Assembly: GCA_977862235.1 (NCBI GenBank)
Contig: OZ374557.1
Span: 2,480,001-2,544,000 of the forward strand
Reading direction: 5' to 3'
Source of the DNA: Dudresnaya verticillata
Lineage: Eukaryota
Length of the DNA: 64,000 bases
A program made the position numbers and the translations under genes. This document shows, one piece after another, positions 18,417-63,100 of the stretch. A model generated the notes under the pieces. The model did no database searches, was not told the DNA's origin, and was given only the letters and a program-made list of their open reading frames with translations. The stretch's first letter is position 1; each line of letters begins with the position of its first letter.

Positions 18417-18418
18417 AC

Positions 18419-29809: not shown

Positions 29810-29820
29810 GGAGGGGGTCG
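29810..29820 (+). promoter_or_regulatory. Polypurine tract of copy B
   Basis: GGAGGGGGTCG directly before the 3' LTR. Confidence 0.7.
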
Positions 29821-31537: not shown

Positions 31538-31558
31538 CACGACTGGTACTGCTTGGCC
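31538..31558 (+). repeat. Putative 5' terminal inverted repeat CACGACTGGTACTGCTTGGCC
   Basis: Identical 21-mer at 47078-47098. Same-strand identity is expected for the 5' end of a plus copy and the 3' end of a minus copy. Confidence 0.65.
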
Positions 31559-33761
31559 GTCAGGGTAAATCTGGGGTAACCCAGTCGTGCGCGGCCATCA
31601 TTCCACTCCGGGTGCTGGTACCAGTACCACCCCTTCCCATGCCCACAATTCCACCCCGGGTCCTAGACCGGTGCGGCGCACCTCGCTCACCACGTCTACC
31701 GCGCGTGGCATACCAAATTGCGCCTGCACCTTAAGTTCACCATGCCCCTCCCGTACCACCCTCCCGATCGCTCCGCACCCGCAAGAACAGGCGTCTCTTG
31801 CACCCACCACACGCCCGGCACTGCGCCCCCGGCCGCGGAGTCTCGCGCTTCGCATACCGTCGCAGATGAGCTCAACAGCGAGGGAGACCTCTATCCACCG
31901 CTGTATGGTGCGTCCTCCGTGGATGTGGCCCGCGAATCACGAGAAGAAGAAGACGACCAGCCAGATGACGATAGCGATGGACTGCAGATATTTGTTTCCC
32001 ATTTTGTCCCGTGGCGCGACTCCATGGTCTAGGTCAGTGCAAACGCGCACGGATAGTCCTTACAAGAGCTGCAGAGTGACTTCTATGCTGCCGCTGACTC
32101 AACATCCACGTACACACTTAAAGTGTAGGATGCCGTGGCAATGCAGAACGCTACGTCTTGGCTGTTTAATCTGATGGACCGCACTGGTGCTGGCTACGGC
32201 ATACGGGGTGATGTTGTGCGTTTACGCCCCGTTTATCTGAGCAGTTGCGGATGTCGCGGTTGCAGGGCTTGTGTTTCATGAGCTTGTGCCATAGCTAGCA
32301 GAGTGGGCTGCAGAAGCAGAGGCGCCAGTAGACTTGCAGGAATCCAAACAGAAAGGCCCTCACTTTGAGAGGGCTACGTAACTGGAACTTGCGAGATGTT
32401 AACGAGGAAGCGCAGCCAAGCCGTTGCAGAGGGCTTACGTCGACTACGACCTTTTGCATGCATGGTCAGTGCCAATGGTGATGCTGCATCACCTGCATGT
32501 AGAGATGCGGGCTGTGACATCGACAGCTTTCCCGTTGCTACAATGGTGACTTCTCGGTCAGCGGCCTGACAGACAACGGGGCTCCCCGTATGACCTTTAT
32601 CCACCAGCTGTTGTGCTGCGGTATAAGATCTGACACACATTCTTTCTCGCTGTTCAAGACAACTACCACTAACAAGAAGATGCCTGGCTCAACTTACAAC
32701 AGCAGCTGGGTATCGACCCGGGTGAAAGTCTGGTCAATTCGCAAGATGCGTTGGATCTCAGAGCTGTGTTTCATACCTTGGGAAAGCTGTACCTCAGCCA
32801 GAGGTATCATATTTTATTTCCAGCTGTTGGCAGGAATCGTTAGTTTGTGAGGTCTGTGGCTGTCGCAGCTGTGTCCACGACAGAGATATCTTTCATGATG
32901 CGTGAATGCTTGTTCGCGATACGTCTACTGTCTGAGAGGGAGGTAGCCGTTGATGGGTTATCTGATCTTCGTAAGGAAGAGAACTCGGAAGCTGGCTCAA
33001 CATATGGAAATGGTCGGCAAGGGCGTAAAGCAGATATCGGGCAAGACCCAACCCTATCGCAACAAGTGTGTAAGCTTATGCGGCAATTCACAGCGAGGCA
33101 GAAGCCCCTTTTGTGCTGCTGTGTCCAAGTCAGAGAGAAGTATAATTGCAACATTTGGGTTCATCTTACGGGGTAAATCGTAGCAGCCCACAAACTTCAA
33201 CTTCAGTTGGGCTTTGGTGTCTTGCGTCAAATGATGCCCTCGTTACATCCACAGCAGACTCAAGTGTCTGAGCGTAGCGTCACTTCAGATACTGCAGCCG
33301 AAACCGACACGTTTGGTCGAGAAACATCAGAGATTCGTTTGCTTAACTACGTGCGTGACACACGGGCCCATTTCGGAACGATTCATCTCTACCACTTCTG
33401 GCAGTCTCGGCATATGCAAACATTGTCTGCCGTCAATCGTTGAGGAGGGTAAGAATGAAATGGGTATGAACCCGCTGCTCATCTTGAATAAAAGTCGTGG
33501 TGTTATGCGGGCAGGCCGCATTTTGTCTTCAATACAGTAATAGGCGCTGTTTTGTTGTTCTTCTTATTGATGGCCTTTAAGCACTTCCTACCCCTACGAG
33601 TCAGGGATTGCAATATTGTCACCATTTCCATCCCGTTGCGGATAGAATCACGACTGAAGACAAGCGGGAAGTGCGTTCATCAAAGAGTTCATCAGTCTCA
33701 GTAAATTTAATCAACCCCGTTTTCTACTCTATATATTCATTGCTATCACTTGACATTCTCA

Positions 33762-34133
33762 CTACACTATTAACTCCTCTTCATATTCGCTGCTTAAGGG
33801 GTTCGTGCAGCTCCACAGCTCCGCGCACACCGAGCGCACAGCTCTGGCGACAGCCGTCCTAACCGCCGTCGCTTCCCGCCTCAAGTGGCGGTAGCAGTGC
33901 ATGAGGAATTCGAATTCCTCCATGCACTCGCGGGCCTCCCTTAAACAGTCCTTCACGATGTCGCGCTGGGGGCGCACATCGATTCGAAGTAGTACCGCTT
34001 GTTCGTATGCTTGTCGGATTGCGTTGCGGGTCATGGTAGGTGTTCGCTGTACAGGGGGATGCAGGTCGACTTCCATCTCTGTGGACTGTGGACTGTCGCA
34101 GAAACAGCCGGTCACCTGGTGGAGTTGGAACAA
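33762..34133 (-). CDS. Small helical orphan ORF of the element (left copy)
   Basis: Open in both arms (mate 62622-62999 +) despite substitutions and an in-frame indel. Confidence 0.4.
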   Translation of the reverse strand: MFQLHQVTGCFCDSPQSTEMEVDLHPPVQRTPTMTRNAIRQAYEQAVLLRIDVRPQRDIVKDCLREARECMEEFEFLMHCYRHLRREATAVRTAVARAVRSVCAELWSCTNPLSSEYEEELIV

Positions 34134-34264
34134 GTATCTCAGCAGGGGTTGGGCGCGTCAAGTCAAGAGATAAATTTCGACAGTAATGGAAATCCTTTAA
34201 TGCTCATCTACATGGAAAAGTCCAAGTCCTGTTATTCGCTGTGACGTTCGCAAAAGGCAAAGTG

Positions 34265-35437
34265 TCATGGCATCAATGACTCGATCTGTGCACCTGGCAC
34301 GATACGTTGCATTTGTTGGACCTCGTCTCGAAGTATTTTGGAATGCTCGTATGTCACGCGGATGTCGTCACAGTTTATTTCTGGGGATGAAGGTACCTGT
34401 TGCTGGGTAAAAGTTGGACAATGCAGTGCCAGCGGTTTTCTTGCAGCCTTTAAGATCTGGGAAGAGGAAAAGAACCCCTGATCTCTCAAAGCAAGGAAAC
34501 CACAGACTACCCAATCGTTACTACTTTTTTCTTGGTGGTAGTAGTAGTACTGCTGTTAATACCTTCACGGAGCGCCTCATTCGTACATTCGAGTCAAATT
34601 GTTGACCTGAACTGTGAGATGCCTGACTTGCAGCAACCGCATCTCCCTTGCGGTGTTTTCATTCATCTCTACATATCTGGTCTTGAGTAATAGACGGCAG
34701 AACCGGTCCAAATGAAAAACCTCTTCTCCAGCCCCGTGGACTGTCTCAGATATATAAGATTCCAGTAACAGAGCATTTTCCCCTGCATAGCTTCCCTCCT
34801 TCACCAATCGGACTTTTCGGCGTAGTAGGCGATACAATTCGCTAAGACTCCTTGTCTCGTGTCAGTGGTTTCGCGCTTCAGCGTGCGACAGATTCTGGCA
34901 GAAACGTTGAAAAGCTTCACTGTCCCTGCCCTCGACCAGTTCGATGCCTGGTTCACTCAAATCTTCGTGAGCCCACTGCCTCGACGTTCGGGCCATCGTC
35001 ATGGACAAACTCCCGTCAAGTGTTTTGAACATGGCATCAAGGCGATCCTGAATTGACTCATCCTGGCATTTTCCATCGAATGGTGCCCCGTCGAGATCCA
35101 CGCTAACAATAGACATGGTTGGTGAAAGGTTTGGTTGCATAGACGAGGAGCGCTTTGTGCAACATGCAACAGTATCCTTGCTGTAGCAACTATATTTTAT
35201 ATGACCAGTAAATCCATGTTCACGATTTTTCTGCACAAGAATGTTACAGTTAGAACGAAGAGCAAACTGACCCCAAAAGTTCCGATGTTGTATTGGTGGG
35301 AAGTGCTCTGTGTCTGACGCACATGTTATTATAGTATTATGGATGTTGTTGGATGACGAACACGAGTTAGAAAATAGAATACTAAGCGCAGTTACGCCAC
35401 TGTACGGTTTTAACGGAGCAGGGTCTCTTAGGGACAT
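34265..35437 (-). pseudogene. Degenerate orphan coding region (mate 61317-62490 +)
   Basis: Chain of same-strand ORF fragments with different breaks in the two arms; no domain recognised. Confidence 0.35.
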
Positions 35438-35943
35438 ATAGGGGTCGAAACGCTTGACCGTATTAATGTTATGCCTGTACGGTTCCTATTGAACACCATG
35501 GCCATGGATGGCGCTGAGGCCCTCGCGAATTATTGTTATAGCAGGGAGTGTCTGCTGAATCATCAAGGGTCGTTCCGGGTTTATCTGCCCAGCTCAATAC
35601 CACGCGTAAATTATGAGGTCACCTGACTAATGACGTAATATACTAATCAAACTGTTACGAAGACGACGGAAATTGATCCACAATACGACGATGCTAGTAC
35701 AGAAACTGATCCCGTCACCCTGCTGTAATCCGTCAGAGGATCCTGAGACTGTCGTCCGAGTAGTAGACGTACTCGTCCCCATCAAACAAAATTGTCCTAC
35801 ACTGTTCCGTATGATGAACGCAGTCGTTCTATTACAGGAGCAGTGAAATAATGAATGTGATAGTAGTCACAAATGGTTAGGTTGTACACTCCCACTATTA
35901 GGACACAGGAAATAGAACTTTATCAAACTGTTGGCTAACGCCA

Positions 35944-36708
35944 TCACTCCAATGCTTCTTTCAGGTCTTGCATCCTTTTCTTCAAGAATGGCACATGAAC
36001 GCAGCACCCGGTGCTACGTCTAATCAGGTTCGCTAGGCGCCGCGGATTTTCCTCGGACTTATCTTCCTCACCATCCATACATCCGCAGTGAGGGCCCTTC
36101 CATAGGTCCAGCAGAGTCAGCCTTTCTATCCTCCGCCGATCATAAAATTTCTTTCCTTTGCAATTGAACTTATAGTTTCCGTCGAAGTACTGCTGAGAGA
36201 CGGAGAAGTCCGCACTTTCAATTCCGCCGACGCCGTACACCCTTTCATGAAACGCTTTGAAAATAGACGTGTCATAGAGACGTATTCCTAGCTCTTCCAA
36301 CCCGACGATACGCATCTGACGCTGCCTTGCCCGACTGACTATACATACAAACCTCTCCTCTCCCATACGCTCGACTGCCTCGTTTAAGCTCTCTCCTCCC
36401 GAGTTCTTAAAATCGTGTAGGTTCAGGGTCTCGCCTTGTAAGTTGTCGACTTCTTCTCTCCCTCCAGAAGTGTTGTGCGACGACATTTTTAACAGTAGTA
36501 CTCCACGGAATAGGTGCAACCTCTGGGCATTCGCTAGAATGAGTACGGGTGGCTGTGAAGCGCCTGGTTTCGAGATTCCAGCGCTCATGTGTGTGTTTGT
36601 ATGCGTGTGTTGTGCACAAAAGGGCGGAGAGTCCGACTTTAAGGGTACAGGCATTTCTGCACAAATGTACAGAGAGGCATCAAGATACGCAGTGTCACCA
36701 ATTGTCAC
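35944..36708 (-). CDS. Orphan ORF divergent from the methyltransferase (left copy; likely start near MSAGIS or MSSHN)
   Basis: Over 210 codons open in both arms (mate 59938-60810 +), with ordinary globular composition. Confidence 0.55.
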   Translation of the reverse strand: MTIGDTAYLDASLYICAEMPVPLKSDSPPFCAQHTHTNTHMSAGISKPGASQPPVLILANAQRLHLFRGVLLLKMSSHNTSGGREEVDNLQGETLNLHDFKNSGGESLNEAVERMGEERFVCIVSRARQRQMRIVGLEELGIRLYDTSIFKAFHERVYGVGGIESADFSVSQQYFDGNYKFNCKGKKFYDRRRIERLTLLDLWKGPHCGCMDGEEDKSEENPRRLANLIRRSTGCCVHVPFLKKRMQDLKEALE

Positions 36709-37239
36709 CCGAAACAGTTTCGGTTGGTGTCGAGTTGGCGCCTACGCGTGGTTTAATCTTGAGTGTGGATAGGAGCTGAATCCAAATTGATATACCTATA
36801 CAATCGTATAACCTGCGACTCGCAACCGTGCGCATGATTTGGTCGTGAATATCTCGCAGCCTGTTTTTCGGGTAGCATAGGACTACTGTACGGACTGCAG
36901 CCCGGATCTTTCTTGTACTGCAGACCCCTCATAGTAGTCACATCCTGGTCGGATTTCGCAGTCCTGAGACTGGAGAGTTTAGTACCGAGACTGCAGCATG
37001 TATCTGTCCACGATTGGTATGAGCGGAATCCATGCACAAGCGGATGAAGTCAATGACAGCGGCTGAGTCACATGGTTTTCATTTAATGCAAATTCTTTCT
37101 CTCATGCAGTGGGAAACGTTGTACATGCATGTATGGAGCAAGGGTGGAAAGCTGTGTCCGACAGAGGCAGTAGTCAGAATTCATTCAGACATCCCATCCA
37201 GAACGTCGGGTTACCGGTGCACACGATAGCCTGAGGAAT

Positions 37240-40150
37240 ATGCCATCGAAAAAGAAGAAGGGAGTGGCGGTGAGGTCTGTATCCATCACAGGACAGACCT
37301 CATCAGACATAAGAGCGCCTGTATAATCTGGGAATGATAGAGTTCTGTTCGGAGATGTCGTTTATGGAGCTACGCACAAGCGAGTCGACCCTCGTTCATG
37401 TGTCCCGTTGACCTACGTCCGCCCGATCTGCAGGTCGGGCGTCGAGCGATTGAAGCGCATTTTCCGGGGGCCTGACCGGTACAGTTCAGGGACATTGAAG
37501 TCTTCCGGGGAAGGAGCTCCGGACTCTATCGGTTACGTGGCTGGAAGTGATATTCCTGTCATTGTGCCATTGACAGGGGCATTGAGAAGCCGTGTGTCCG
37601 ATTATTTCGGGTCACAAACAAGGAAGGACTGTACGCGTCGTTCCGAGAAAGAAGTTCAGGACATTGTGAAATCGAGGGGGAAATGTTACGGAGTAGTTCA
37701 TGGCATGCATAGATTGGCAGCTATTCGTGAGCTGCTTGAAGAAAACTACAACCGGTGGAAAACCTTTGACTGGCCCGTGCCGGAGCTGAACCCGCGGACC
37801 GACCTGGTGGTCCTGAAGCAATTCGCTAGACATCAGAATCGTAAGCGCGAGGCAAACTGCTTCGTGGAAACTACCCTGTATAACACATTGAAGGGTCTGA
37901 AAGATGAGGCTGATCGCCTTCAAGCGGAGGGAAATGGTATCAATCCGACAGCAAAAGCGGTTGCGTCCGCTTACGATGGGGGTGTTCATATGCACGAGAA
38001 CACAGTGAGGCAGACAGCGCAAGTAGCTCTCCGACTAAGTCATCGTGTCATCGATGCGATAGGGGAGATAATGGGGGAAGAAATACCGCAGCTTGCATTG
38101 GATTCACGAAGTGGAAGAACTGCTAAATCAGTAGCAGACGATGCCCTGATGTCGGCAATGTCGTCAATGACGCCGGGTTTTCCGGACGTTTATTACTCTG
38201 AACTCACTGAAGGCTGCCACAGAGTTCATGCGCGCGGGCCAAATGAGTGGCCTGGTGCATGATGAGAGTGTGGAAGTCCAAGTCTCGACACTCTATCGCA
38301 TTCGAGAAATATGCAGGAGGAACGGGTTCAGGCCCGTTCTTTACGGGGTCACCGAATCAGAGTTCGGGAAGGCTAAAGATGCGCTAGCAGAGGTTCGCAA
38401 ATTCGAAGGCCTTCGTGAATCTGGGGACTGTCCGGGTCCCATGGACACAATGCGGACAAATGTTCTGCGATCCCAAACGTTTGATGGCGATATCATGCTC
38501 AACAGGGGCAACGACACATTGATTTTGAAATGCATTCGGGATATGTGCAAGGACTGTTGTCCGGAAGAAGCACCCCTGAAGATTCACAAGTACCATTCTG
38601 TTAGAGAAAGGAACAGAAAGGAGTGCGATGAAGAGAAAAATTTGGACCGGGAGTGTGTGAATGAGATTACGACTGGAGTGCAAGATTAAGGGGGGGTCAA
38701 TTCCGATCAGGTAACAACTGCTGGAAACAAGGACCATCCCTCTGACGGACAGATCGAACACGATGACGTTCCCTCTCCTTCTGTGAACGTAGATTCGCTA
38801 CCTTGCAGTCGAGACCTCGGTTCTACCGGAGACCATCACAATCATGATGCAGGAGATGTGCAGGGATCGGCTATAAAATCTACTGTGACGGTGAGCACGG
38901 AAAAGTCGGAGAGGCTGGCTGTACGTGGGACAAGAACGGACCTGACGACCATTTGCAAGCTGATATCTTGAAGGCGTATAGAATAACCTGCCATCAGATG
39001 CGGTGGCAGGTATACAATAAGAATATTCGCGAGGGTGTTGGTGACCTATGCGACATAGTTTTTACCGACACACCGTATGGAACGCCTGCATCACAGTCTG
39101 ATGCAGGGAAACAGTACGTCAACTATATGAGTGATTCTGAAATATCCGAGCTTGCAGGAATGTGCAGGGAATCCGTTGTACCGGGAGGGTGGGTGTTCAT
39201 GTTCGTGTCCTACCAGACATTCGAACCTATAAGGCAGGCTCTTCTGAAGGCCGGTTTCACTTGCCCAACGTACGCCTTTTCGATTGCAAAGGATACACAC
39301 ATGGTGCAGGAGAGGCGAGGAAATGACTGTCCCCAAAATGGCCACGAAATTGCCGTAATGGGAAGAGCCCCAGGACAACACCCAGCGGATTTAAAGTGGA
39401 TCTTCGAAGCCCATATCAATTAGCGAAGGCTTCGGAAAAGAGAAAGTTTGCGTGCATATCTCAAATTCCCGTTTCTAAGAAGAAACGCCTTAAACCGGGT
39501 ACAAAATCACCGGTGCTTACTGAGGAGAAGAATGTTCAGCTGTTGGTGGAATTGTTGACGACCTTCTGCCCTGATGGGGGGCCATTTTGGACATGTATGC
39601 TGGAATGATGACAGCTGCAATTGCAGCCGTGCAGACTGGTAGGAAATGCACCTGTATAGAGCAAAGCCTACAGACATACAGGCTTGCAGTTGCACGCCTG
39701 AAAAGGATAGCAAGTGATCATCGCAAGTTGTCGGAAGGAATGGAAGGAACACCACTGTGCCATGGTACAGCGGAAGAGGCCCTGGGAGAGGACCAGGGAG
39801 CGGATGTGGAAAACCCGCAACAGAAACGGCTCAGGAATGAGGCGAAGAAAACTTCGGATTGTACTACTGGCGGCGATGCAGTTGTTCTATACGTTGGGAA
39901 GAACGCTGTTGGGAAGACAAAAGTCCAATTCGGGGCAAGTTCTGATGAAAACGTTCGCAAGCAGATTCATCTGAAACCCCTGTCAGAATACGAAAAGCCA
40001 GGACAGGAACTCATTGCGGTGTACGCCTTCGAATGTGATTCATCCTTTGCCACCTCAGCATATCCGTATAACTTTCATGTCCCGAACGGCCATCCTTCCA
40101 CGATTCTAAGTGAGCTAGACGGATTTTTTGCATGGGTATCCATCCGATGA
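37240..40150 (+). pseudogene. ParB-like domain fused to beta-class N6A/N4C DNA methyltransferase (left copy, disrupted)
   Basis: MPSKKKKG start; YGVVHGMHRLAAI; DIVFTDTPYG (motif IV); EKNVQLLVELL..FCPDGG/LDMYAGMMTAAIAAVQTGRKCTCIE (motif I region). Confidence 0.8.
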
Positions 40151-40630
40151 AAGCCCAGGAGCGGTGCGACCAGAAATGAGGGTAAAGCAGAGTTTAGAAT
40201 AATAATCGTTCGCTTCACTAGTTTCCTACGCCATAGCGAAATATTGTAAGCCATAATCACATGCTACTCCTCGCTGGAGACCATGTACTGCCACCGACAG
40301 CGCTATCCCAGTAGAAGTCCACAGCGCAAAAGTTGCATCATCGCTCGGTCCCATTTCCGCAGCAACTTCTCTTTCACAATCTCGGATCTGCAGAGTTCCA
40401 TCGAATTGTAGCTCTTGCAGAGCATGGGATGAATGTCGAGCGGCATGGAAGATCTGCCAACAAGCATCTACAAGAATGATGCATCCACGGCCCCGGTAGA
40501 GTAGTAGTAGCGAGGCGGGTCGGGTCACTGTACTGTGAGAATATCGAGAGCTTCGATTTGCAGGTAGGTGCACTCGGGCAATACACTTGCGTCTCATCGC
40601 GGAACGAGTGCCCGCAGTTCCGAAATTACT

Positions 40631-40835
40631 GCAATCGCGTGAAAACCTATCCAATATTATGGAGAATGACCAACAGCTTTTCGGAAAGCCGCCCGTAAAT
40701 TTCTATTAAACAGCACATACACTGTACGAGATCTGAAAAACTATGATAGGTTTTCCGAAACGCGAGTGCTCATGTGCTGTTTAATAGCTTTTTGATTCTC
40801 ACTGGTCGAAAAGCTGTAATAGGTTTTGCGATTGC
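40631..40835. repeat. Imperfect ~205-bp palindrome (mate 55943-56147)
   Basis: Nested inverted pairs: GCAATCGC..AAAACCTAT/ATAGGTTTTGCGATTGC, CAGCTTTTCG/CGAAAAGCTG, CTATTAAACAGCACAT/ATGTGCTGTTTAATAG. Confidence 0.85.
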
Positions 40836-41469
40836 CTCGGGCCAAACACCTTTTTGATAGAAACTACGTTTGCTCGACCCCAGGACCTATTCCATATTAT
40901 GGAGAATGCAAGATAGCTTTTCAGGTCACGCGGCATAGCTCTACAGGATCTTTTCCACGAGATTTATCGCTGAATCCCTTCTCGGAATTTTCTTTCGGAA
41001 CAGCTGGGTCCCTCCACCCGTCCGGTTGTTGGCCAGCGCCCTCCCAAACGCAATCGCAACCACACCGCCGCGTTTCGCTTCAACCGCCTCCCGCCCGCCC
41101 CCCGCAACGGGCGCCAGGTCGCGCCCCACCGCACCCCACCGACCCGCACAACTACTGTGCTTCCCGTCGCACTGCCGCACCACGCCCCGACGCGGTACCC
41201 CACGCAAACCCCACGCACCTCACGGGAAAGCGCGGCCCTCACACGCTGGGGTGCCGTGGCGAAGCCTCAGAGCGCATCGCGCTGCCCCACGCGGCGGCGC
41301 GCTGCACCTGGCCTCGTCCACCATCGAGCTGCCTTTTGACGCGTCCAATTTCATCTCATTCGCAACAAGACTATTGTGATATAACATAGGAGGCAGTTCG
41401 AGGTATCGTTACAGCTACTAGAAAGCCTCATGGCCATTCTCTGGCGATTCTTTTGCGCTTGGATGCGCT

Positions 41470-41612
41470 TAGCTGGATGCACTTAGCTCAAATAAAGGGA
41501 AAGCGGAGCAACCCTGTTGCCGTGTGGAACATTGGATGCTCACCAATAACTGCGCGCGAGTTTTCCCCCGACATGAACAGCGAGGGAAGCCGTCTCATGG
41601 CTGTTACTCGAC
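41470..41612 (+). pseudogene. Captured WDR20/DMWD/CreC-like WD40 gene fragment (upstream piece)
   Basis: KRSNPVAVWNIGCSPITAREFSPD..RLMAVTRHG resembles the NPVxxW..I..FSPD..LA...RDG segment of WDR20-family proteins. Confidence 0.55.
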
Positions 41613-41614
41613 AT

Positions 41615-42200
41615 GGCGGTCGGCAAGCTTGGCAAAGAGAGCTGATAAAATGTCAAGAAGGAGATGGTTGTGGACAAGCGACTGGATGAAGCCGCCGCCG
41701 ACAAGATTGAAAACTTTGTTATGCTGAACGGCGACCCGTTGGAAATCTTAACGAAGTTGCGCGAACAAGCGGAATTGGCAGAGGCCTATGGCGAAGCTCT
41801 TGATGGAATGGAGACGCTTTTCAACTTGGTGGCAAGCATGCGCGAGGGGTAACCGCAGTGGCTTTCGTTTGATCTCCCGCTCGACCGTGGGCTGGAATAC
41901 TACAGTGGCGTCATTTTTGAGGCGGTCTTAGTCGACAAGAAAACGAACTTGGGCTTCATTGGCACTGGGGGTCGTTATAACAATTTGGTGGGCATGTTTC
42001 CTGAGTCGCGTTATACCGTGTGTTGGGTGCTCTCTCACATCAATGAGAACTGGAACATGGGAAAGCAGGTAACGCAGGCCATTACCCAAGGCATTACCCT
42101 CATGGTGGTTATCGGAGAGGACGAGATTGCGCAAGGTGTAGCAAAACGTAAAGTGCTGGCGACAAAGGCCGAGCAGACCATCCCAAGGGGAATAAGGCCC
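41615..42200 (+). pseudogene. Captured cytosolic histidyl-tRNA synthetase fragment (internally deleted)
   Basis: [57 protein letters not shown]. Confidence 0.85.
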
Positions 42201-42339
42201 AGTGTTTGCGCCCTTTCTTTCGAGAGGAGTGATCATCATTCATGGTCCTCTTCGATGCTCTTTGAATGGATGGCATCCCGAATTGCTGTCCAATGCTAGC
42301 TTTGTCTTCTTCGTGGGCCCAGTTCGGTTCTTACTCACC

Positions 42340-43100
42340 ATGTCCGATGTTTGTGGCCAAGCACAATCAGCAATGTTGAACCTACAAGCCAAACGAAGCC
42401 CGGAGGAAGTCCGTTGGTGTCAGATATATGTAAGTTGCAGTATTGGCTTGAAGTTGTCGAATTTCTGGTGGACTCACCTTTGTCATCTCAACCTAGGAGA
42501 ACCAGTTCAATCACTGTCCAACCCATGCGCTGAAATATTTTGTTTGCTCAGGTCGCGATTGGGTAGGCTCTGCAGGTGTTCAAAGTGCCCACGCTAGGAC
42601 AGCCGTATGAAAATATCAAAACAGTAATGGCAGCCAACCGAACAGGTAACCTTAGAGGTGCTTTGCGCCGTTTAGACTCATCTTGAGGAAGCTCTGCATT
42701 TTGGCAAGGGCTCATGCCGTGGGCCTGCATAGAGGCAGTAACGAAGAGAAGAGTGCCTCTCTTTGCGCAGAATGAGATGAAGAATCTCAAACAATAGGTG
42801 GGGATGGGACGTTTGCGTCTAGTGCCTTCGGCGGAATGGGTAGTGGAGTGTGCCAAGGCTACTACAAAATGGGGTTCTGTACGTTCATGAAGACAGTTCA
42901 AGTAACAAGAACAAAATGCGTTGGCGGTGGTCAGAAGAGCTGCATAGCTGTGGCTAGTGACATCTTGCGAAGGGAAGGAATCCTAGGGATTTACAAAGGC
43001 GTCAATGCTGTAGCGTTGTGGCAAGCAACGAATTGGGGATCTCACTTTCGGTTCTGCAGAGTTGTTGAGTCCATCATCCGCAGGAAGGATGGCGCCTTTT
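42340..43100 (+). pseudogene. Captured YHM2-like mitochondrial carrier 5' fragment with retained intron 42430-42551
   Basis: TLGQPYENIKTVMAANR, QGLMPWACIEAVTK, MGFCTFMKTVQVTR, GIYKGVNAVALWQATNWGSHF closely follow fungal Yhm2 motifs. GTAAGT...GCTCAG phase-0 intron. Confidence 0.85.
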
Positions 43101-43413
43101 GATAGTGTTGTAAGGTATCATACTTTTCAATCACTGGCAGACTCACCTCTGGGCTCGTGCAACACAATTCGAAAGAGACTTTTCTCAGCCTCATTGCACT
43201 CTTGCAACTCCCGTGGCGTGTCGGGAAAGCTCCGAGTACGGGAATCTGCAGTTAGATGAACGGAGCACCGGCTTTGGCGAGCAGAGCGAGGCGGACTCGG
43301 TGTGGTAGAGGGGCACGGCGGAAAGGCGCGCACAACGGCCCGGGCGGTGATGTGCGCGCAGAGAGATTTACTAATGTCGGTTATCGTGCCATAAAGGTTT
43401 CGGAGCAGGTCTT

Positions 43414-43955
43414 TTAGGATTCGGAGCGGGAGGATCGTGGGCTCGCTTGGGCCTCAACGGATGTGATCACAGTTTCCAGGGCAAACATTGCCTGCGATAA
43501 TGCCAATGTGACACTGCGATGAACTCGGCGAAAGACACTGCCAACCATGCGCAGAGCCGCTCGCTTCAGACGGGCAACCAGCTGACTTAGCTCATCCTGA
43601 GCGCTCCTAAGTTGCTGGAATTCTTCTTCAAGCTCAACGAGTTGCGCTTCGACATCTTCGAGACTTATGTCATCCGTCTGCATCAGGCTTGTTCCGTGAC
43701 TTCAGACTCCTCCTTTCTGCGGGCAAGGTGGAGCTGCAAAGCCGCGATATGTACCCTTGATTCTGTAAGTTTCTCCTGGATGAAGACAAGCAGACGGTTG
43801 ATTTGACACACAACTGGCCACCCTAGTCGTTGAAGCTCACGCGACAAGTACGATACCGTCTCCCGAATGGTCCTGATCTCCCCCTGTAGTGTAGCTTTTC
43901 TCTCCTGAGCGGAATGCAGCCTCCCTTCTCTTGTCTCTTGATACATGTTGTGCAT
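43414..43955 (-). CDS. Coiled-coil-like ORF pair overlapping at TGATG (mate 52367-52908 +)
   Basis: Two ~90-aa E/L/Q/R-rich ORFs with a 1-nt stop/start overlap. Confidence 0.4.
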
Positions 43956-44719
43956 AAGGTAGAGTCTGGAACGTTTGTCTCACGGCGAACTTCAAATTTG
44001 CAGACTGGTACTTGATGCACAGGTTGGTGCATGTTCGCAAACTGGCGAAAAGCCAGCTGTAGCCCACGGCAGCTCATTGGATAGACTTGTCCTTGTTCTG
44101 CAAGAAAAATCACGGGGTATCGAGACGTAAACATCAACGCAGCCGGCAGCCGGGGTCGTACTTCTCAGCCCCTCTCGATTCTATTTCTTATCCTTGACGC
44201 CCATCAATACTACCCGCTTGTGGTCGCATGGCGGAATAGAGCAGTCTGCAGGGCGTACCCTTGCAATACCGAGTACTGCTTCTTGATTGACGGGGACTCG
44301 AGATTCGCGACTTGTCCGTTCTGATTGGTAATATGGCACGCTCGTCTCTCGAATCAGACTGTTTTGTTCGCACTGGCGCTATAGTGTATGGCGGGAAGGA
44401 GTGGTGCATACAGAGCGAGAGGGAAGCCCTTCTAATACCAGTCGTTTTAACTGCGATCCGTAGCAACTCTGGACATGCGCAAGCCTGTCACGCAGAACGC
44501 CCCACCGCCACTGGAACAGTATTATACCGGTGTCGTTTCAGAAGCGCCCTCGGCCCTCCCGAATATTTCAGCTCTTCAGAACAAGTAGCGCACAACTATC
44601 GCGCCATAGCGGGAACATCGATTTTGTTGCTTCACTTCGCCCGCCCTGAGTGCAAGGAGCATCTTGCACTAGTGAATTGCAAAAGGCTCAGACTCCCCTA
44701 CCGAAAGGGGTAGTAGAAC

Positions 44720-47072
44720 ATGGCCCAAGCCTCATCTGGGCAGGTTTCGAAAGCAGGAAACGTTCCAGTTCAGAACGACGACGACTTCGGCGATGAGCTG
44801 CTTCCCGGAACAAAGCCCGGCGCACGAGTCATGCTCACTCTCAACGGGGAACACGTTGCTACAGCAACCCTGCTACGACCTCATGATTTTAGGGAGGGTG
44901 CCGTTGATCCCAGTGGTCGATTCGGCACATACCTGCACGGGCGCAACCTTGGGCCTCAACAACGTGATGGAGAAGTATGGGTTGTAGTTCACCTCGTGCG
45001 ATGCCTCCACAACTGCAATTCCTACGAAAACCTTTTCCAGTACAAACCAGGCAGTACGCCTTGTCCGGAGACACTGAGTCGAATGCAGACTGGAAAACAC
45101 GCCTGGGACCTATTCCAGATTGAGGATATCTTAACCATCTACAATACAGAGCGCAGAAAGAGCTCAGGTGCGACTGTCTCCAGAGTGGAAAAACGTGCGG
45201 TGGCTGACGCTAACCCACAAACACCCCCTCTGCTCAGGGTTCGCAAATCCGCTCCTCGCCCAAAACAGCAGCATGGTGCGGAAGAAATGGCAGCGGTGAA
45301 CAGCCCTTCAACACCACCGCCAGAGAAAGTCAATGAAGAGGAAGATGTCACAAAAATTCTGGAATACACACCTGTACGCCGGCCACCTATGCGTGAACGA
45401 CCCCAGAAACCATCCAAGAATAACGTCCCGGACGCCTTACCAGTCTCTTCGGCCCCAGTGTCTCTTGAACACACGACTAAACCCGTGGAAGAGAGATCCT
45501 CGTGTAGGCGGGACAGACAGAGGCGATGCAGATCTGAAACAAAACTCTGCTAGGGCTGTCGGATCTGCTAGGGCTGTCGGATCTGCTAGGGCTGTCGGAT
45601 CTATTCCTTCTCGAGGAAAAGGATCAAGCGACGAAGAGAACTGTATCACGCCCCAGCCATGCCCTGCACACAATGTCAGACGTACGCCTGAAAGCAGTTC
45701 TGGTTTTAGTAGTGGCGCACCAGAAACCGACCCTGATGCTACCCCGGCGTTGCCTGCGAGTACTAACACAAAGGGTGACGTGGAACGAACGCCAGGTGCT
45801 GATGGCTCGGAAATAGAGCACGGTGAGGAGCAATCAGATGCTGCGACGTTGGATCTGGTGAGCGACGCAGAGGTGGAAGGTGGAAGTTATGGAATATTAG
45901 AAGACGAAGATACTGGAAGCTACCAGGAAATTGAGGACCTCACCAAGGACGCGGATTACGTGCCGAGTGCGACAATTTCACGAAGACGCACGGCAGCATA
46001 CGAGGCTGAACGGATCCCCAAAACGCCCAGAGTTGCTGAGGATGAGACCAATGGCTCCCGAAAGAGAAGGTACCGCTTCTACGCAAGACAAAGAAAGAAG
46101 TTGAGGGTTGGTGATACTGCATTGCAAAAGCTTCGCAATGCTGCTCTGGAAAGGCTTGATGAAGAAGACTGGGGCTCCAAGGAGTGCTGCATGCGGAAGC
46201 AATGCTTCAAGAGGGTATCGATTGTGTACATGAAAGCCGAGATTCGCAAACTGTTGCGTATGGACGCCCATGATCGACGAACCTATTTGCACGGGTTGTT
46301 GCAGCGACCGGGATGGAATTATTACTTCGACGGCAAGCCAGTATGCTACACGTTCCTGGAGACGGCGTTTGGGTTTTCCAGGGACCTGCAATATTCAGTC
46401 AAACAGTTTGGTGGAAGCCGGCCTATGGATGGTGACAATGCCGTGCCGTATCAGCCTCCGAGTGAGGGCAGGGATAAGATACTAACTTACCTCAACCGGT
46501 TTGCTGAGATAACAGCAAGCTGCATGCCCGACGCAGATGAGAAGCATCTGCCGTACTTTGATAAGGCTGCGGTCTACGAGAACTTCCTTCTGGACCAGGA
46601 AAGACTGTATCCTGGAAAAGACCCGCCTCGACTAAACTACTTCTACCACGTCTGGAAGCAGCACCGCAGTGACATAAAAGTCCGCAAAATCCAACGCTTC
46701 ACAAAGTGTTCGGAGTGTGAAGAATTTCGTGCTGGACTGACCAGGGCCGGTACAAACCGCAGACTTGCGGAGCCGTTTCTGCTCCATAGAAAGGAACACT
46801 ACAAGCTGGTTACAAAGTAGAGGGTTTACTACAGGGAGAATACGGAAAAAGCTACTTTGTATCCCTCCGAGTACTGTTCACTGATAATTGATGGCGCGGA
46901 CCAGAAAGCGTTCGGAGTACCAAAGTTCTTGGTCAGCACGAAGGCTACGCGTGGACATGCCACAGCAACAAAAGTTGTAGGCGCATTGGAACAAGGTTCA
47001 TTGAAGCACCTATCCCTGTTCGTCACGACAGGAGAGTTTGAGACCAGCGCAAATCACATGATCGAAACAGTC
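44720..47072 (+). pseudogene. Sola-like DDD transposase, left copy, 3'-truncated
   Basis: ECCMRKQCF, VCYTFL, FTKCSECE, IIDGADQ; homology to the right copy stops at 47072. Confidence 0.75.
45546..45602. repeat. 18-bp tandem repeat x3 (SARAVG); mate 50720-50776
   Basis: TCTGCTAGGGCTGTCGGA repeated three times. Confidence 0.95.
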
Positions 47073-47077
47073 TGGTA

Positions 47078-47098
47078 CACGACTGGTACTGCTTGGCC
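47078..47098 (-). repeat. Putative 3' terminal inverted repeat of the right copy
   Basis: Identical to 31538-31558; lies 5 nt after the point where the left transposase breaks off. Confidence 0.65.
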
Positions 47099-47414
47099 CA
47101 GATTTACCCTGGCTCACCAGTATCACCCCTCCGTCTCGTGGCCATCATTCCACTCCGGGTCCAGTGCGGCGCCTGTGCCGCACCACCTCTACCGCCATCT
47201 CGCTTGCCATATCAGACTTCAAGCTCACCACACCCCACTGTCTACACCCGCCCATGCCGCCCTCCCCATCAAGCCGCGCACCTCGCGCACCTACTCTACC
47301 GCACCACGCAGGCATGTCAAAGTGCGCGTGAAGTCGTAGACTTCACATCTACGACATGCCCCGCCGCGGCGGTAAGTGTTGTGCGACTGGGGTAAAATTG
47401 AGCAGGTCCTGCTC

Positions 47415-47918
47415 AAGTGCTGAAACTGCATCAGGTACTGCAGAGAGACACCAACCGCTCTACCTGCGCATGGCTGCCGGTGCGTCTTGCGTCAATTGCT
47501 TTTACATCGCTTCGCAAACACCCCCCGCTATTGCCATTGCAAGCCAAACAACGCAATCCACTCGCACGAAAACAATTTCACGAGTTATCATTACCCCCCT
47601 GTTGCTAATGCAAGGCAAATAAGAATCACTCGCACAACAACAATTTCGCGTGTTATCATTGCCCTCGTATTGCCATTGCAAGGCAAATAACAATCACTTG
47701 CGCAACAACAATTTCGCGTGTTTTCATTTCCGTCGACGCCAACTGCTGAAGTGCTGAAACTTCATCACGTGCTGGACCACGACATCAACCGCTCTAACTT
47801 CAAATGGCTTCCGGTGTGCCTTGCCTCAAACGCTTTTGCAACGCTGACCAAACAAACCCCGCTATTTACATTGCAAGGCAAGGAACGCACAGCACTCGCA
47901 CAGTACCAATTTCGCGTC
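47415..47918. repeat. Subterminal repeat array (three ~69-bp units inside an older ~330-bp-period duplication)
   Basis: TGCAAGGCAAA..CACTCGCAC..AACAATTTCGCGTGTTATCATT units at about 47530-47730; AGTGCTGAAACT..CAACCGCTCTA at 47416 and 47750. Confidence 0.8.
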
Positions 47919-48119
47919 CTAGCTCTACTGCTCAAGTATAGAAAGTGGTAGTCCTGGACGAACAGGAAAACAAACCAGTTTCATAGCAGCTCTCAAACAC
48001 ATTACCCTAATCACCTTCACTCTATACTTCCCATTCTGACTCAGTAGACTTACCTCTATTCCTTGCTCTACAGATGGCTGCGGGAGCTACTGTTTGTGAA
48101 GGCACTCGCGCAACTTCTT

Positions 48120-51100
48120 CTACACAGAAGCTGGTAGCCTGCCATTCCTGGTGAGCGACTCGAACTCCACAAGTACGCAATCAACGGTGACGTCTTCTTC
48201 CCATTCCTTTGCGACCCCGCGCCTGGTTTTGTAGAACGAAGGTTTGTAAGATTCACTGAAAACATTACCGGTGTGCTTGGCTTCATACCACCGCAACAAC
48301 AATTTCGAAACCCTTCCGTCGTCCCCCTTCACAACTTGCATCACTTTTGCCACGTTAAAAGGACATTGCTCGGTTGCCTGAACATAATTGACGGCCACCA
48401 TTCTGTTGTGGCTGTAGGTTAGGTCCTGTGCGGGTAGTTGCTCCACTTCTGGTCTCTCCGGAAGCATTTCGGGGTCTCTATGCTGTCTACTGTCCCTTCG
48501 CAGCTTCCCATTCGTCTCCGGGGCGTGATCTAAGTCCCAGTGAAATGGTTCGTTTCGATCTCTATAGACGTGAACCCTAAGATTTTCCAGTTCGGTGATC
48601 TGCGACGCCTTCAGCGCTCGGACTTCAGTGCAACTTATGCGATCATTGACCTCCTTCATATCAGGTGGGCATCGCGCTATGGTCTCTGGCGTCTTAACGA
48701 GGTCAGGGGTGAATAGTATGAAGCTCTCCTGTTTGAGAGAGTTGCCACGTGCTTCTGTTACAAGTGGTTTCCACTCATCTCCACACTGAATCTTGACGAA
48801 GCATCGCGTGCGGAATCTCGCTTTTCTGCCCATTCCCTTACCACCTTGGCGAGTAATACGAAAGAATCTGTAGTGTGAGAATGCTTCAGTCTTTCCAATA
48901 CACGCATACTTGTCACACAGCCCGGAAAAGTTGGCTACCTGCAGCAACCTTGCCACCGATGGACGAGGCGTGTATGGCATGCTTAGTTCGCGGAGAAGGC
49001 AAGGCATGGTCGGGATGTCTTTTGATCGGACCCTCTTGCTTGTGCAACTTAAGGCCTGGTCGATGTCGGAATAGGTGTGGCCGATTGGGAGAAAGGAAAC
49101 CTGCACTTCATGCAGAACACCCCACGCGACTAAGCACTACAGTTAAGAAATCATGTACTTATTTTTTTCTCCCGGGTGCAGTTGTCTAGCTGCAGTAACA
49201 GCGTAGGCTGCAGAGTAACATGTTTATGCTTGACTGTGAGAAGGCGATGGACTGTTTTGATCATGTGATTTGCGCTGGTCTCAAACTCTCCTGTCATGAC
49301 GAACAGGGATAGGTGCTTCAATGAACCGTGTTCCAATGCGCCCACAACTTTGGTTGCTATGGCATGTCCACGCGTAGCCTTCGTGCTGACCACGAACTTT
49401 GGTACTCCGAACGCTTTCTGGTCCGCGCCATCAATTATCAGTGAACAGTACTCGGATGGATACAAAGTAGCTTTTTCCGTATTCTCCCTGTAGTACACCC
49501 TCTCCTTTGCAACCAGTTTGTAGTGTTCCTTTCTGCGGAGCAGGAACGGCTCCGCAAGTCTGCGGTTTGTACCGGCCCTGGTCAGTCCAGCACGAAATTC
49601 TTCACACTCCGAACACTTTGTGAAGCGTTGGATTTTGTGGACTTTTATGTCACTGCGGTGCTGCTTCCAGACGTGGTAGAAGTAGTTTAGTCGAGGCGGG
49701 TCTTTTCCAGGATACAGTCTCCCCTGGTCTAGAAGGAAGTTCTCGTAGACCGCAGCCTTATCAAAGTAGGGAAGATGCTTCTCATCTGCGTCGGGCATGC
49801 AGCTTGCTGTTATCTCAGCAAGCCGGTTGAGTTAACTTAGTATCTTATCCCTGCCCTCACTCGGAGGCTGATACGGCACGGCATTATCACCCTCCATAGG
49901 CCGGCTTCCACCAAACTGTTTTACTGAATATTGCAGGTCCCTGGAAAACCCAAACGCCGTCTCCAGGAACGTGTAGCATACTGGCTTACCGTCGAAGTAA
50001 TAATTCCATCCCGGTCGCTGCAACAACCCGTGCAAATAGGTTCGTCGATCATGGGCGTCCATACGCAACAGTTTGCGAATCTCGGCTTTCATGTACACAA
50101 TCGATACCCTCTTGAAGCATTGCTTCCGCATGCAGCACTCCTTGGAGCCCCAGTCTTCTTCATCAAGCCTTTCCAGAGCAGCATTGCGAAGCTTTTGCAA
50201 TGCAGTATCACCAACCCTCAACTTCTTTCTTTGTCTTGCGTAGAAGCGGTACCTTCTCTTTCGGGAGCCATTGGTCTCATCCTCAGCAACTCTGGGCGTT
50301 TTGGGGATCCGTTCAGCCTCGTATGCTGCCGTGCGTCTTCGTGAAATTGTCGCACTCGGCACGTAATCCGCGTCCTTGGTGAGGTCCTCAATTTCCTGGT
50401 AGCTTCCAGTATCTTCGTCTTCTAATATTCCATAACTTCCACCTTCCACCTCTGCGTCGCTCACCAGATCCAACGTCGCAGCATCTGATTGCTCCTCACC
50501 GTGCTCTATTTCCGAGCCATCAGCACCTGGCGTTCGTTCCACGTCACCCTTTGTGTTAGTACTCGCAGGCAACGCCGGGGTAGCATCAGGGTCGGTTTCT
50601 GGTGCGCCACTACTAAAACCAGAACTGCTTTCAGGCGTACGTCTGACATTGTGTGCAGGGCATGGCTGGGGCGTGATACAGTTCTCTTCGTCGCTTGATC
50701 CTTTTCCTCGAGAAGGAATAGATCCGACAGCCCTAGCAGATCCGACAGCCCTAGCAGATCCGACAGCCCTAGCAGAGTTTTGTTTCAGATCTGCATCGCC
50801 TCTGTCTGTCCCGCCTACACGAGGATCTCTCTTCCACGGGTTTAGTCGTGTGTTCAAGAGACACTGGGGCCGAAGAGACTGGTAAGGCGTCCGGGACGTT
50901 ATTCTTGGATGGTTTCTGGGGTCGTTCACGCATAGGTGGCCGGCGTACAGGTGTGTATTCCAGAATTTTTGTGACATCTTCCTCTTCATTGACTTTCTCT
51001 GGCGGTGGTGTTGAAGGGCTGTTCACCGCTGCCATTTCTTCCGCACCATGCTGCTGTTTTGGGCGAGGAGCGGATTTGCGAACCCTGAGCAGAGGGGGTG

Positions 51101-51602
51101 TTTGTGGGTTAGCGTCAGCCACCGCACGTTTTTCCACTCTGGAGACAGTCGCACCTGAGCTCTTTCTGCGCTCTGTATTGTAGATGGTTAAGATATCCTC
51201 AATCTGGAATAGGTCCCAGGCGTGTTTTCCAGTCTGCATTCGACTCAGTGTCTCCGGACAAGGCGTACTGCCTGGTTTGTACTGGAAAAGGTTTTCGTAG
51301 GAATTGCAGTTGTGGAGGCATCGCACGAGGTGAACTACAACCCATACTTCTCCATCACGTTGTTGAGGCCCAAGGTTGCGCCCGTGCAGGTATGTGCCGA
51401 ATCGACCACTGGGATCAACGGCACCCTCCCTAAAATCATGAGGTCGTAGCAGGGTTGCTGTAGCAACGTGTTCCCCGTTGAGAGTGAGCATGACTCGTGC
51501 GCCGGGCTTTGTTCCGGGAAGCAGCTCATCGCCGAAGTCGTCGTCGTTCTGAACTGGAACGTTTCCTGCTTTCGAAACCTGCCCAGATGAGGCTTGGGCC
51601 AT
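48120..51602 (-). pseudogene. Sola-like DDD transposase, right copy, full span but with stop and frameshifts
   Basis: IIDGADQ ... LQLDNCTRE(fs)NKY ... FLPIGHTYSDIDQ, preceded by Cys clusters. C-terminal beta-rich domain PFNVAKVMQV...LRWYE. Confidence 0.8.
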
Positions 51603-52366
51603 GTTCTACTACCCCTTTCGGTAGGGGAGTCTGAGCCTTTTGCAATTCACTAGTGCAAGATGCTCCTTGCACTCAGGGCGGGCGAAGTGAAGCAACAAAA
51701 TCGATGTTCCCGCTATGGCGCGATAGTTGTGCGCTACTTGTTCTGAAGAGCTGAAATATTCGGGAGGGCCGAGGGCGCTTCTGAAACGACACCGGTATAA
51801 TACTGTTCCAGTGGCGGTGGGGCGTTCTGCGTGACAGGCTTGCGCATGTCCAGAGTTGCTACGGATCGCAGTTAAAACGACTGGTATTAGAAGGGCTTCC
51901 CTCTCGCTCTGTATGCACCACTCCTTCCCGCCATACACTATAGCGCCAGTGCGAACAAAACAGTCTGATTCGAGAGACGAGCGTGCCATATTACCAATCA
52001 GAACGGACAAGTCGCGAATCTCGAGTCCCCGTCAATCAAGAAGCAGTACTCGGTATTGCAAGGGTACGCCCTGCAGACTGCTCTATTCCGCCATGCGACC
52101 ACAAGCGGGTAGTATTGATGGGCGTCAAGGATAAGAAATAGAATCGAGAGGGGCTGAGAAGTACGACCCCGGCTGCCGGCTGCGTTGATGTTTACGTCTC
52201 GATACCCCGTGATTTTTCTTGCAGAACAAGGACAAGTCTATCCAATGAGCTGCCGTGGGCTACAGCTGGCTTTTCGCCAGTTTGCGAACATGCACCAACC
52301 TGTGCATCAAGTACCAGTCTGCAAATTTGAAGTTCGCCGTGAGACAAACGTTCCAGACTCTACCTT

Positions 52367-52908
52367 ATGCACAACATGTATCAAGAGACAAGAGAAGGGA
52401 GGCTGCATTCCGCTCAGGAGAGAAAAGCTACACTACAGGGGGAGATCAGGACCATTCGGGAGACGGTATCGTACTTGTCGCGTGAGCTTCAACGACTAGG
52501 GTGGCCAGTTGTGTGTCAAATCAACCGTCTGCTTGTCTTCATCCAGGAGAAACTTACAGAATCAAGGGTACATATCGCGGCTTTGCAGCTCCACCTTGCC
52601 CGCAGAAAGGAGGAGTCTGAAGTCACGGAACAAGCCTGATGCAGACGGATGACATAAGTCTCGAAGATGTCGAAGCGCAACTCGTTGAGCTTGAAGAAGA
52701 ATTCCAGCAACTTAGGAGCGCTCAGGATGAGCTAAGTCAGCTGGTTGCCCGTCTGAAGCGAGCGGCTCTGCGCATGGTTGGCAGTGTCTTTCGCCGAGTT
52801 CATCGCAGTGTCACATTGGCATTATCGCAGGCAATGTTTGCCCTGGAAACTGTGATCACATCCGTTGAGGCCCAAGCGAGCCCACGATCCTCCCGCTCCG
52901 AATCCTAA
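52367..52908 (+). CDS. Coiled-coil-like ORF pair (right copy)
   Basis: Identical translation to 43414-43955. Confidence 0.4.
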
Positions 52909-53219
52909 AAGACCTGCTCCGAAACCTTTATGGCACGATAACCGACATTAGTAAATCTCTCTGCGCGCACATCACCGCCCGGGCCGTTGTGCGCGCCTTT
53001 CCGCCGTGCCCCTCTACCACACCGAGTCCGCCTCGCTCTGCTCGCCAAAGCCGGTGCTCCGTTCATCTAACTGCAGATTCCCGTACTCGGAGCTTTCCCG
53101 ACACGCCACGGGAGTTGCAAGAGTGCAATGAGGCTGAGAAAAGTCTCTTTCGAATTGTGTTGCACGAGCCCAGAGGTGAGTCTGCCAGTGATTGAAAAGT
53201 ATGATACCTTACAACACTA

Positions 53220-53994
53220 TCAAAAGGCGCCATCCTTCCTGCGGATGATGGACTCAACAACTCTGCAGAACCGAAAGTGAGATCCCCAATTCGTTGCTTG
53301 CCGCAACGCTACAGCATTGATGTCAATGGCGTACGCCTTTGTAAATCCCTAGGATTCCTTCCCTTCGCAAGATGTCACTAGCCACAGCTATGCAGCTCTT
53401 CTGACCACGGCCAACGCCTTTTGTTCTTGTTACTTGAATTGTCTTCATGAACGTACAGAACCCCATTTTGTAGTAGCCTTGGCACACTCCACTACCCATT
53501 CCGCCGATGGCACTAGACGCAAACGTCCCATCCCCACCTATTGTTTGATATTCTTTATCTCATGCTGCGCAAAGATAGGCAGTCTTCCCTTCGTTACCGC
53601 CTCTGTGCAGGCCCACGGCATGAGCCCTTGCCAAAATGCAGAGCTTCCTCAAGACGAGTCTAAACGGCGCAAGGAACCTCTAAGGTTACCTGTTCGGTGA
53701 GCTGCCATTACTGTTTTGATATTTTCATACGGCTGTCCTAGCGCGGACACTTCGAACACCTGCAAAGCCGACCCAATCGCGACCTGAGCAAATAAAATAG
53801 CTCAGCGCATGGGTTGGAGAGTGATTGAACTGGTTCTCCTAGGTTAAGATGACTAAGGTGAGTCCACCAGAAATTCGACAACTTCAAGTCAATACTGCAA
53901 CGTACATATATCTCACACCAACTCACTTCCTCCGGGCTTGCTTGGCTTGTGGGTTCAACATCGCTGATCGTGGTTTACCACAAACATCGGACAT
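53220..53994 (-). pseudogene. Captured YHM2-like carrier fragment (right copy)
   Basis: VAIGSALQVFEVSALGQPYENIKTVMAA, RQATNWGS; intron donor GTACGT. Confidence 0.85.
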
Positions 53995-54139
53995 GGTGAG
54001 TCAGAAACGAGCTGGGCCCACGAAGAAGACAAATCTCGCGTTGAACAGCAATTCGGGATGCCGTCCATTCAAAGAGCATCGACGACGACCATGAACGATG
54101 ATCACTCCTCTCGAAAAAGGGCGCTAACACAGGGCCGTA

Positions 54140-55155: not shown

Positions 55156-55159
55156 GAGA

Positions 55160-62999: not shown

Positions 63000-63100
63000 T
63001 GAGAATGTCAAGTGATAGCAATGAATAGATAGAGTAGAAAAAGGGGTTGAGTAAATTTACTGAGGCTGATGAACTCTTTTATGAACGCACTTCCCGCTTG

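Follow-up and report, generated by a model that had tools for sequence, protein, structure and literature searches.

What ties a DNA methylase to a transposase that lies beside it, and does the tie make the methylase a working part of a transposon? This question is raised by a 64,000-nucleotide stretch of Dudresnaya verticillata DNA (contig OZ374557.1, positions 2,480,001 to 2,544,000; hereafter the window, with positions counted from its first letter), in which a broken methylase gene and a broken transposase gene each occur twice, in the two arms of an inverted duplication. A sequence-only reading of this DNA had aligned by eye the C-terminal tail of the methylase with the N-terminal head of the transposase; the motifs it quoted were found where it placed them, the tail string being a mix of both copies, as it had said. 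Sequence comparisons through relatives confirmed that tail and head belong to one homologous domain family. The shared beta domain of ~100 amino acids (aa) occupies the C-terminus of the left methylase (39872-40135, + strand; its last residues are lost to a private frame shift) and of the right methylase (56640-56906, - strand), and lies near the start of an open reading frame (ORF), here called the head ORF, at 44819-45109 (+ strand) in the left copy and 51213-51503 (- strand) in the right copy, the DNA of the right head being identical to that of the left.

The alignment by eye was no proof by itself, because a direct BLASTP comparison of tail and head was not significant (E = 0.094 and 0.093, 22-23% identity over about 60 residues) and no match between them was found at the DNA level. 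The homology was established through relatives. When the first 141 residues of the head were searched with phmmer against 1.84 billion representative proteins, three matches were obtained at E ≤ 0.001. One of them, P0003, is a PF01555 methylase; its last 105 residues (393-497) align once with residues 24-134 of the head (E = 2e-4, 36% identity). The other two, P0001 and P0002, are tandem-repeat proteins whose matches are scattered over numerous short segments, and they look like artefacts. We also built a hidden Markov model (HMM) of the tail from the last 125 residues of six of the seven methylases recovered in a search with the ParB-like ORF, leaving out P0006, which has no tail, and using neither the head, nor the window tails, nor P0003. 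Only four of the 1359 window peptides exceeded its inclusion threshold, namely the right and left tails (61.7 and 51.7 bits) and the two heads (41.4 bits each, E = 9e-12). The next peptide scored 4.0 bits, the best of 2000 shuffled heads 4.6 bits and the reversed head -0.6 bits, and in leave-one-out runs the head scored 33.0-41.3 bits in six of six. Congruently, hhalign of a nine-tail alignment against the head gave a probability of 97.4 and an E value of 1.5e-11 over 97 columns. Chance resemblance is thus ruled out by the P0003 match, the tail HMM with its controls, the leave-one-out runs and hhalign, even though the direct pair is not significant. We also rejected the idea that a remnant of a whole methylase gene precedes the transposase, as only positions 861-956 of the methylase profile match there and nothing upstream does. 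The homology proposed by eye therefore stood, but the cysteine that had been aligned is not conserved in the family.

The methylase gene joins a ParB-like part, a helical part, an N6/N4 amino-methylase and the shared domain, which we call the barrel for its predicted fold. Both copies are pseudogenes. The left one (37240-40150, + strand) has several stops and frame shifts, and the right one (56598-59532, - strand) has a frame shift near motif I in common with the left; several other frame shifts are private to one copy, and a comparison of the two over 759 codons counted 65 non-synonymous and 17 synonymous differences and 3 stops. Motif IV precedes motif I, which is the beta-class N6_N4_Mtase order. 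The search with the ParB-like ORF returned seven long methylases among 7078 candidates (38-48% identical), and the N6_N4_Mtase profile PF01555 exceeded its cut-off (26.7 bits) in seven of the eight relatives that we compared; the pieces of the window methylase, broken as that gene is, did no better than E = 0.012-0.055. Motif IV is DPPY in seven of the eight relatives, whereas both window copies read DTPY. In P0010 the catalytic motif is degenerate (DLPF) and the barrel is retained; P0006 retains DPPY and lacks the barrel. As the barrel forms the extreme C-terminus in seven of the eight, these comparisons showed it to be the normal C-terminus of this ParB-like/N6-N4 methylase family. In the ParB-like part, the motif DG[MC]HR is present in all seven full-length relatives, and the DndB profile scored below its cut-off (E = 0.008-0.12). 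Beyond these relatives, 66 viral loci matched the catalytic part alone, with no barrel among their 8022 peptides, matches in phage records were likewise restricted to the catalytic part, a plasmid set had no match to the methylase or the shared domain, and contigs of the JGI metagenomes had no locus related to the methylase or the transposase; viral contigs yielded no transposase either.

The transposase belongs to DUF7869 (PF25273), to which the right copy matched twice (E = 8.3e-19 and 6.1e-11; 68.4 and 42.7 bits, cut-off 26). This copy (48120-51602, - strand) comprises the head and a full-length but broken transposase with the motifs IIDGAD (49438), QLDNC (49192) and GHTYSD (49082). The body of the left copy (45545-47072, + strand) is truncated at 47072, and the right one continues to 48120. 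The head ORF (44720-45553, + strand, 277 aa from its ATG) is likely the first part of the transposase; its barrel begins 33 codons after the ATG and is followed by a low-complexity linker. The two heads count as a single observation, because both sit inside a 3.3-kb arm-to-arm tract (43020-46333 and its mirror in the right arm) that has zero substitutions, the remaining arm sequence being mostly 4-6% different. Recent gene conversion, inversion near the centre of the palindrome and an assembly artefact are candidate origins of this tract. None of ten window ORFs was found by exact sequence in the protein collection. At the level of sequence, then, the shared domain is known from eight methylase lineages (seven relatives and that of the window) and one transposase.

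Ten aligned members of the domain have five invariant positions (V, L, L, L and W) and near-invariant H, Y, P, G and D. Among six full-length methylases, mean identity is 31.8% in the domain, 45-50% in the ParB-like, helical and catalytic parts and about 20% in the linkers. The head retains all five invariant positions despite its long branch, and this conservation fits selection rather than a decaying remnant. None of the ten members matched a Pfam family better than E = 0.1, and the Tudor, PWWP, chromo and BAH readers gave no row; PHROGs gave no family, with two single weak rows only; a PDB sequence search gave no match; no match among longer proteins came from word-based searches with either segment; and the ESM Atlas gave no usable lead for the two tails. 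By these comparisons the domain family is uncatalogued, as neither Pfam nor PHROGs nor the sequences of the PDB offered a counterpart.

AlphaFold predicted both head (predicted local distance difference test, pLDDT, 77.5) and right tail (pLDDT 87) to be all-beta, with an identical order of elements: first a pair of strands, then a hairpin and turn as an insertion, one long strand, a loop in extended form, a short helix, the strand that bears the tryptophan and, finally, a short strand and a helix. Foldseek gave no match at E ≤ 0.001 in the PDB for either model, or in viral structures for the tail model. The top rows of VIA-align for both models were BAH, PWWP, LSm, Tudor, KOW and chromo barrels (Z 3.5-4.5), the best being Z 4.5 and 4.4 with none at 5 or above, so that the barrel families are tied, a stand-out reader match being taken as Z ~8; 39 of the 50 listed entries were common to head and tail, nearly all of them SH3-like barrels. 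The core strands resemble those of BAH (7cce, 4bb7), PWWP (6kco), LSm (6ppn, 3swn), Tudor (6if4) and KOW (5ohq) domains, with superpositions at Z 4.2-4.5 and a root-mean-square deviation of 2.9-4.6 Å over 53-72 residues, but about 40% of the domain consists of unaligned insertions and no PDB sequence matches it. At the level of fold, these predictions support an SH3-like beta-barrel core with insertions, no single family being singled out; of the SH3/Tudor-like module suggested earlier, the SH3-like fold found support, with all-beta models and barrels in the top rows, and Tudor did not stand out (Z ≤ 4.5). The net charge of the domain (-6 to +1) and several conserved aromatic columns favour a peptide or partner over the DNA backbone as the putative ligand.

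We give about an even chance to the reading that the methylase and the likely front end of the DUF7869 transposase carried the barrel as a functional shared module in one large, now dead, DNA transposon. An old domain shuffle would have placed a methylase-type barrel on the transposase. The methylase would have been loaded onto the element via its ParB-like part and would have written N6-methyladenine (6mA) on it, a product that we propose because the relatives have DPPY. The barrel would have read a chromatin protein, a histone mark or a shared partner, not naked DNA, and the transposase with its barrel copy would have been guided to the same chromatin sites as the methylase, so that the two may have been co-targeted. 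Both genes would be parts of one element that also acquired host-gene pieces. This reading draws on the homology of head and tail, on the place of the barrel at the end of seven of eight methylase relatives and its better conservation than that of the linkers, on the invariant positions kept by the head, on the concordant models, on the codon signal that runs from head to body without a gap, and on the common order of the genes in both arms. Published red-algal transposons with methylase and ParB accessory genes beside inverted-repeat arrays also speak for it, a palindrome cluster lying behind the methylase gene here too. A bolder version, in which the transposase of a eukaryotic DNA transposon family and an adenine methylase of its own both carry this barrel as a chromatin reader, so that the element would mark its own DNA and direct its transposase to that chromatin as a self-contained read-write-jump module built by domain shuffling, is put forward tentatively and at clearly less than even chances.

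Several observations weigh against the shared-module reading. On the side of the transposase there is one independent case, the heads being identical in DNA, and no second transposase with the domain came out of word-based, phmmer, JGI metagenome or viral-contig searches. The head is least like the tail of its own neighbour, and copies so diverged may have different ligands. In either copy, head and body are out of frame and are joined only across a frame shift. The fold matches are weak (Z ≤ 4.5) and show no function, and the agreement between the two models is not independent, since the alignment used for the head model was that of the methylase tails. Both window methylases are pseudogenes, and P0006 is a full methylase without the shared domain. 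The ParB label comes from the DGMHR motif, which we take to be a sign of ParB, and from weak DndB scores. At the locus, 4.6 kb with host-gene debris part the methylase from the transposase; a duplication would copy any neighbours, related or not; and no convincing pair of terminal inverted repeats was found between 47073-48100 and 48200-64000, although the duplicated part may not include the 5' end. The suggestions of the sequence-only reading that the methylase is an integral component rather than cargo, and that the domain could target both proteins alike, thus go beyond what the locus shows: the genes are together in one inverted duplication only, with host fragments between them and no ends found.

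The reading that survives best beside it, which we judge possible but distinctly less probable, accepts the homology of the barrel and takes the transposase copy for a one-off or neutral shuffle, with a differing job or none, the methylase being ordinary mobile cargo. It draws on the single transposase case and on the divergence between the head and the tail beside it, which differ more than any other pair in the family. The head shares 17-19% identity with the window tails and 32-33% with those of P0003 and P0010. In the tree, the window tails group with P0004 and P0005 (support 95/99), with the head outside this group at the end of a long branch; forcing head and window tails together was not rejected (approximately unbiased test, p-AU 0.089). 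Because the head is closer to the tails of other methylases than to that of its neighbour, the shuffle would appear to be old or to come from another methylase lineage, and a recent duplication inside the element is disfavoured by the lack of a DNA match and by the lowest identity, with p-AU at 0.089. It draws, too, on red-algal accessory genes, which are reported, in the part available of a preprint, to hop between transposable element (TE) families (10.1101/2025.02.11.637652). A neutral shuffle explains less well why the head should have preserved the domain in full, invariant residues included, within an open frame of 277 codons whose start lies 33 codons ahead of the domain, and why no other part of the methylase is detectable around it.

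Rather improbable, in our view, is that the two genes come from different elements, or from a transposon and an adjoining island, and were copied jointly in the inverted duplication. Arm-to-arm alignment delimits a left arm (33661-47072, + strand), with both genes inside, and a right arm (49250-63100, - strand), mostly 4-6% diverged from it. Each arm holds, in this order, opposite-strand frames of no known family, the methylase gene, ~4.6 kb and the transposase gene, the order and direction of the two genes being identical in both. The ~4.6 kb hold a palindrome cluster and pieces of broken host-like genes (histidyl-tRNA synthetase, mitochondrial carrier and a coiled-coil frame; 41616-43979), of which the synthetase and carrier pieces lie at 41616-43130 and 54200-55590 and are candidates for Pack-type capture or for intervening host DNA. 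Such fragments between the genes favour two elements, as do the lack of a terminal repeat pair, the common frame shift with neutral divergence, which show the copied sequence to have been dead, and a difference between the arms at 41189-41615, where the right arm retains a longer synthetase piece and the left has unrelated sequence. The methylase element would end in the palindromes at 40640-40925. These short palindromes (GAAAASCT-N5-AGSTTTT type) form nested inverted repeats behind both methylase copies (40640-40925 and 55856-56137; DNA fold z -5.8), with five half-sites in 290 bases by a pattern that was chosen after viewing the region; a ParB-type binding array, subterminal repeats and an element end are all candidates for them. 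Repeats of 68 bp and 334 bp downstream of the right transposase (47409-47929) are possible subterminal repeats, and no target-site duplication was found around both genes. Against two elements stands the rarity of the domain, which had no other match in the 1359 window peptides, the 8022 peptides of the 66 viral methylase loci or the plasmid set; its presence in unlinked neighbours would be unlikely unless they came from one TE lineage. Moreover, elements of 16-20 kb with multiple ORFs are reported from Chondrus in the accessible part of one study (PMC6431247).

It is quite unlikely that the head ORF is a separate gene, a TnpA-like accessory made of the barrel and a disordered tail, rather than the transposase N-terminus. 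In favour of a separate gene, the head ORF (44720-45553) has its own ATG and stop and, in both copies, lies in a different frame from the body ORF (45300-46820), the body frame having ATGs of its own at 45333 and 45345. However, the two frames overlap by about 250 bases, and a codon model trained on 1396 element codons favoured the head frame to ~45410, and hence at the body ATGs, and the body frame from ~45500, clearly so from 45740. The codon signal passes from one frame to the other without a gap, as for one frame-shifted gene, and the element has many other frame shifts. The simplest reading of these data is that head and body are one gene with a frame shift; an intron between them is possible, with 58 candidate GT-AG pairs that would restore the frame and none that stands out. 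An 18-bp tandem repeat (3.2 copies) lies at the switch between frames (45546-45602 and 50720-50776). The earlier placement of the domain at the transposase N-terminus is therefore a deduction, as in neither copy do head ORF and body share a frame; the codon signal is in its favour. Least probable of all is that methylase and transposase bound each other through the barrel as a self-association module, for LSm-like barrels, which oligomerise, are among the top fold rows and a terminal position on long linkers suits docking, but nothing in the sequence singles this out and the supposed partners are 17-19% identical.

How does the reading of a functional module shared within one transposon compare with known systems? 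Transposase_23 (PF03017)/DUF8039 of En/Spm-type elements is likewise a small beta domain of transposon proteins, and we take its motif order, with a closing T-L-G...W, to resemble that of the shared domain; none of the ten members matched Transposase_23 at E ≤ 1, in a search whose filters discard weak matches and could miss a remote link. The D...QLDNC...GHT...D motifs of the transposase presumably recall Sola-like transposases. Compared with Sola-type DNA transposons, no terminal inverted repeat pair or target-site duplication was found here, and the likeness lies in these motifs. Further parallels come from the PAG2 and PAG3 genes of red-algal Plavaka elements, which, as far as the available part of their description goes (10.1101/2025.02.11.637652), also combine a large DNA transposon, an accessory PF01555 methylase, a ParB-like domain and adjacent inverted-repeat arrays. 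In PAG2 the methylase is fused to SET, of which we found no match in any of the eight relatives at E ≤ 0.1. In PAG3 the ParB domain is fused to a 2-oxoglutarate (2OG) oxygenase, which had no match in the eight relatives either; here the ParB-like part leads instead into the methylase, with the barrel in the same protein. On this domain content the window methylase is neither PAG2 nor PAG3, because the fusions that define them are absent. The transposase differs as well, being a DUF7869 protein with a domain in common with the methylase. The N4CMT of bdelloid rotifers, in the portion of its description at hand (PMC8885841), is likewise a bacteria-derived amino-methyltransferase with a small reader barrel, a chromodomain, that reads histones and writes on DNA. 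That gene serves the host in silencing, and its chromodomain is a true one, whereas here the gene is of a transposon, the barrel is no Pfam chromodomain and the relatives have DPPY. The model that we propose would work like N4CMT, but on the side of the transposon.

Other features of the window touch these genes less directly. Upstream of the methylase, a divergently oriented ORF without a known family (35947-36741, - strand; right arm 59938-60810, + strand) is a possible further accessory gene, and so are frames of no known family at 33850-35485 (- strand) in the duplicated unit, oriented away from the methylase. At its C-terminal end (48123-48440, - strand) the transposase has one more small region rich in beta structure, which matched neither a Pfam family nor the shared barrel; a third barrel copy there was rejected (profile match probability 0.04). 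GC-rich stretches at 47078-47302 and 31538-31702 are 72-83% similar, and the first begins at the cut-off of the left transposase. The 64 kb also carry EMC1, broken host genes and gypsy-type retrotransposon genes that include a chromodomain. Two copies of a chromodomain-bearing gypsy-type long terminal repeat (LTR) retrotransposon make up a second large inverted pair (1-9004 and 17495-26522, 97% identical). EMC1 lies between them (10313-12451, + strand); its reading frame has a stop (10685-10687) that may reflect an intron or a pseudogene. A further LTR-like piece is at 29820-30732.

Red-algal DNA transposons that carry N6_N4-methylase and ParB accessory genes, adjoin inverted-repeat arrays and swap these genes between TE families are on record in the available text of the Bostrychia preprint (10.1101/2025.02.11.637652), and methylase-carrying Mariner elements of giant viruses, as far as the part at hand describes them (PMC3627910), are a further precedent. 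Transposon-borne N6/N4 methylases in red algae have thus been described before; what appears to be new is the domain in common with the transposase. No ParB-like/methylase/barrel architecture appears in the available part of a review of eukaryotic adenine methylases (PMC4738411), no papers on DUF7869 were found, and no description of the shared domain was found in a literature search that lay outside the Repbase entries and the supplements of the Bostrychia preprint (including Supplementary Table 6, which gives TE families with accessory genes). The claim is limited by its single transposase case, which lies in a dead element. The role of accessory methylases in giant algal DNA transposons is left to future work in the accessible part of that preprint (10.1101/2025.02.11.637652). 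To that question, a domain that the methylase has in common with the transposase would bring a direct sequence argument for its co-evolution with the transposition machinery, and a foldable domain of 100 residues may serve as a handle for ligand testing.

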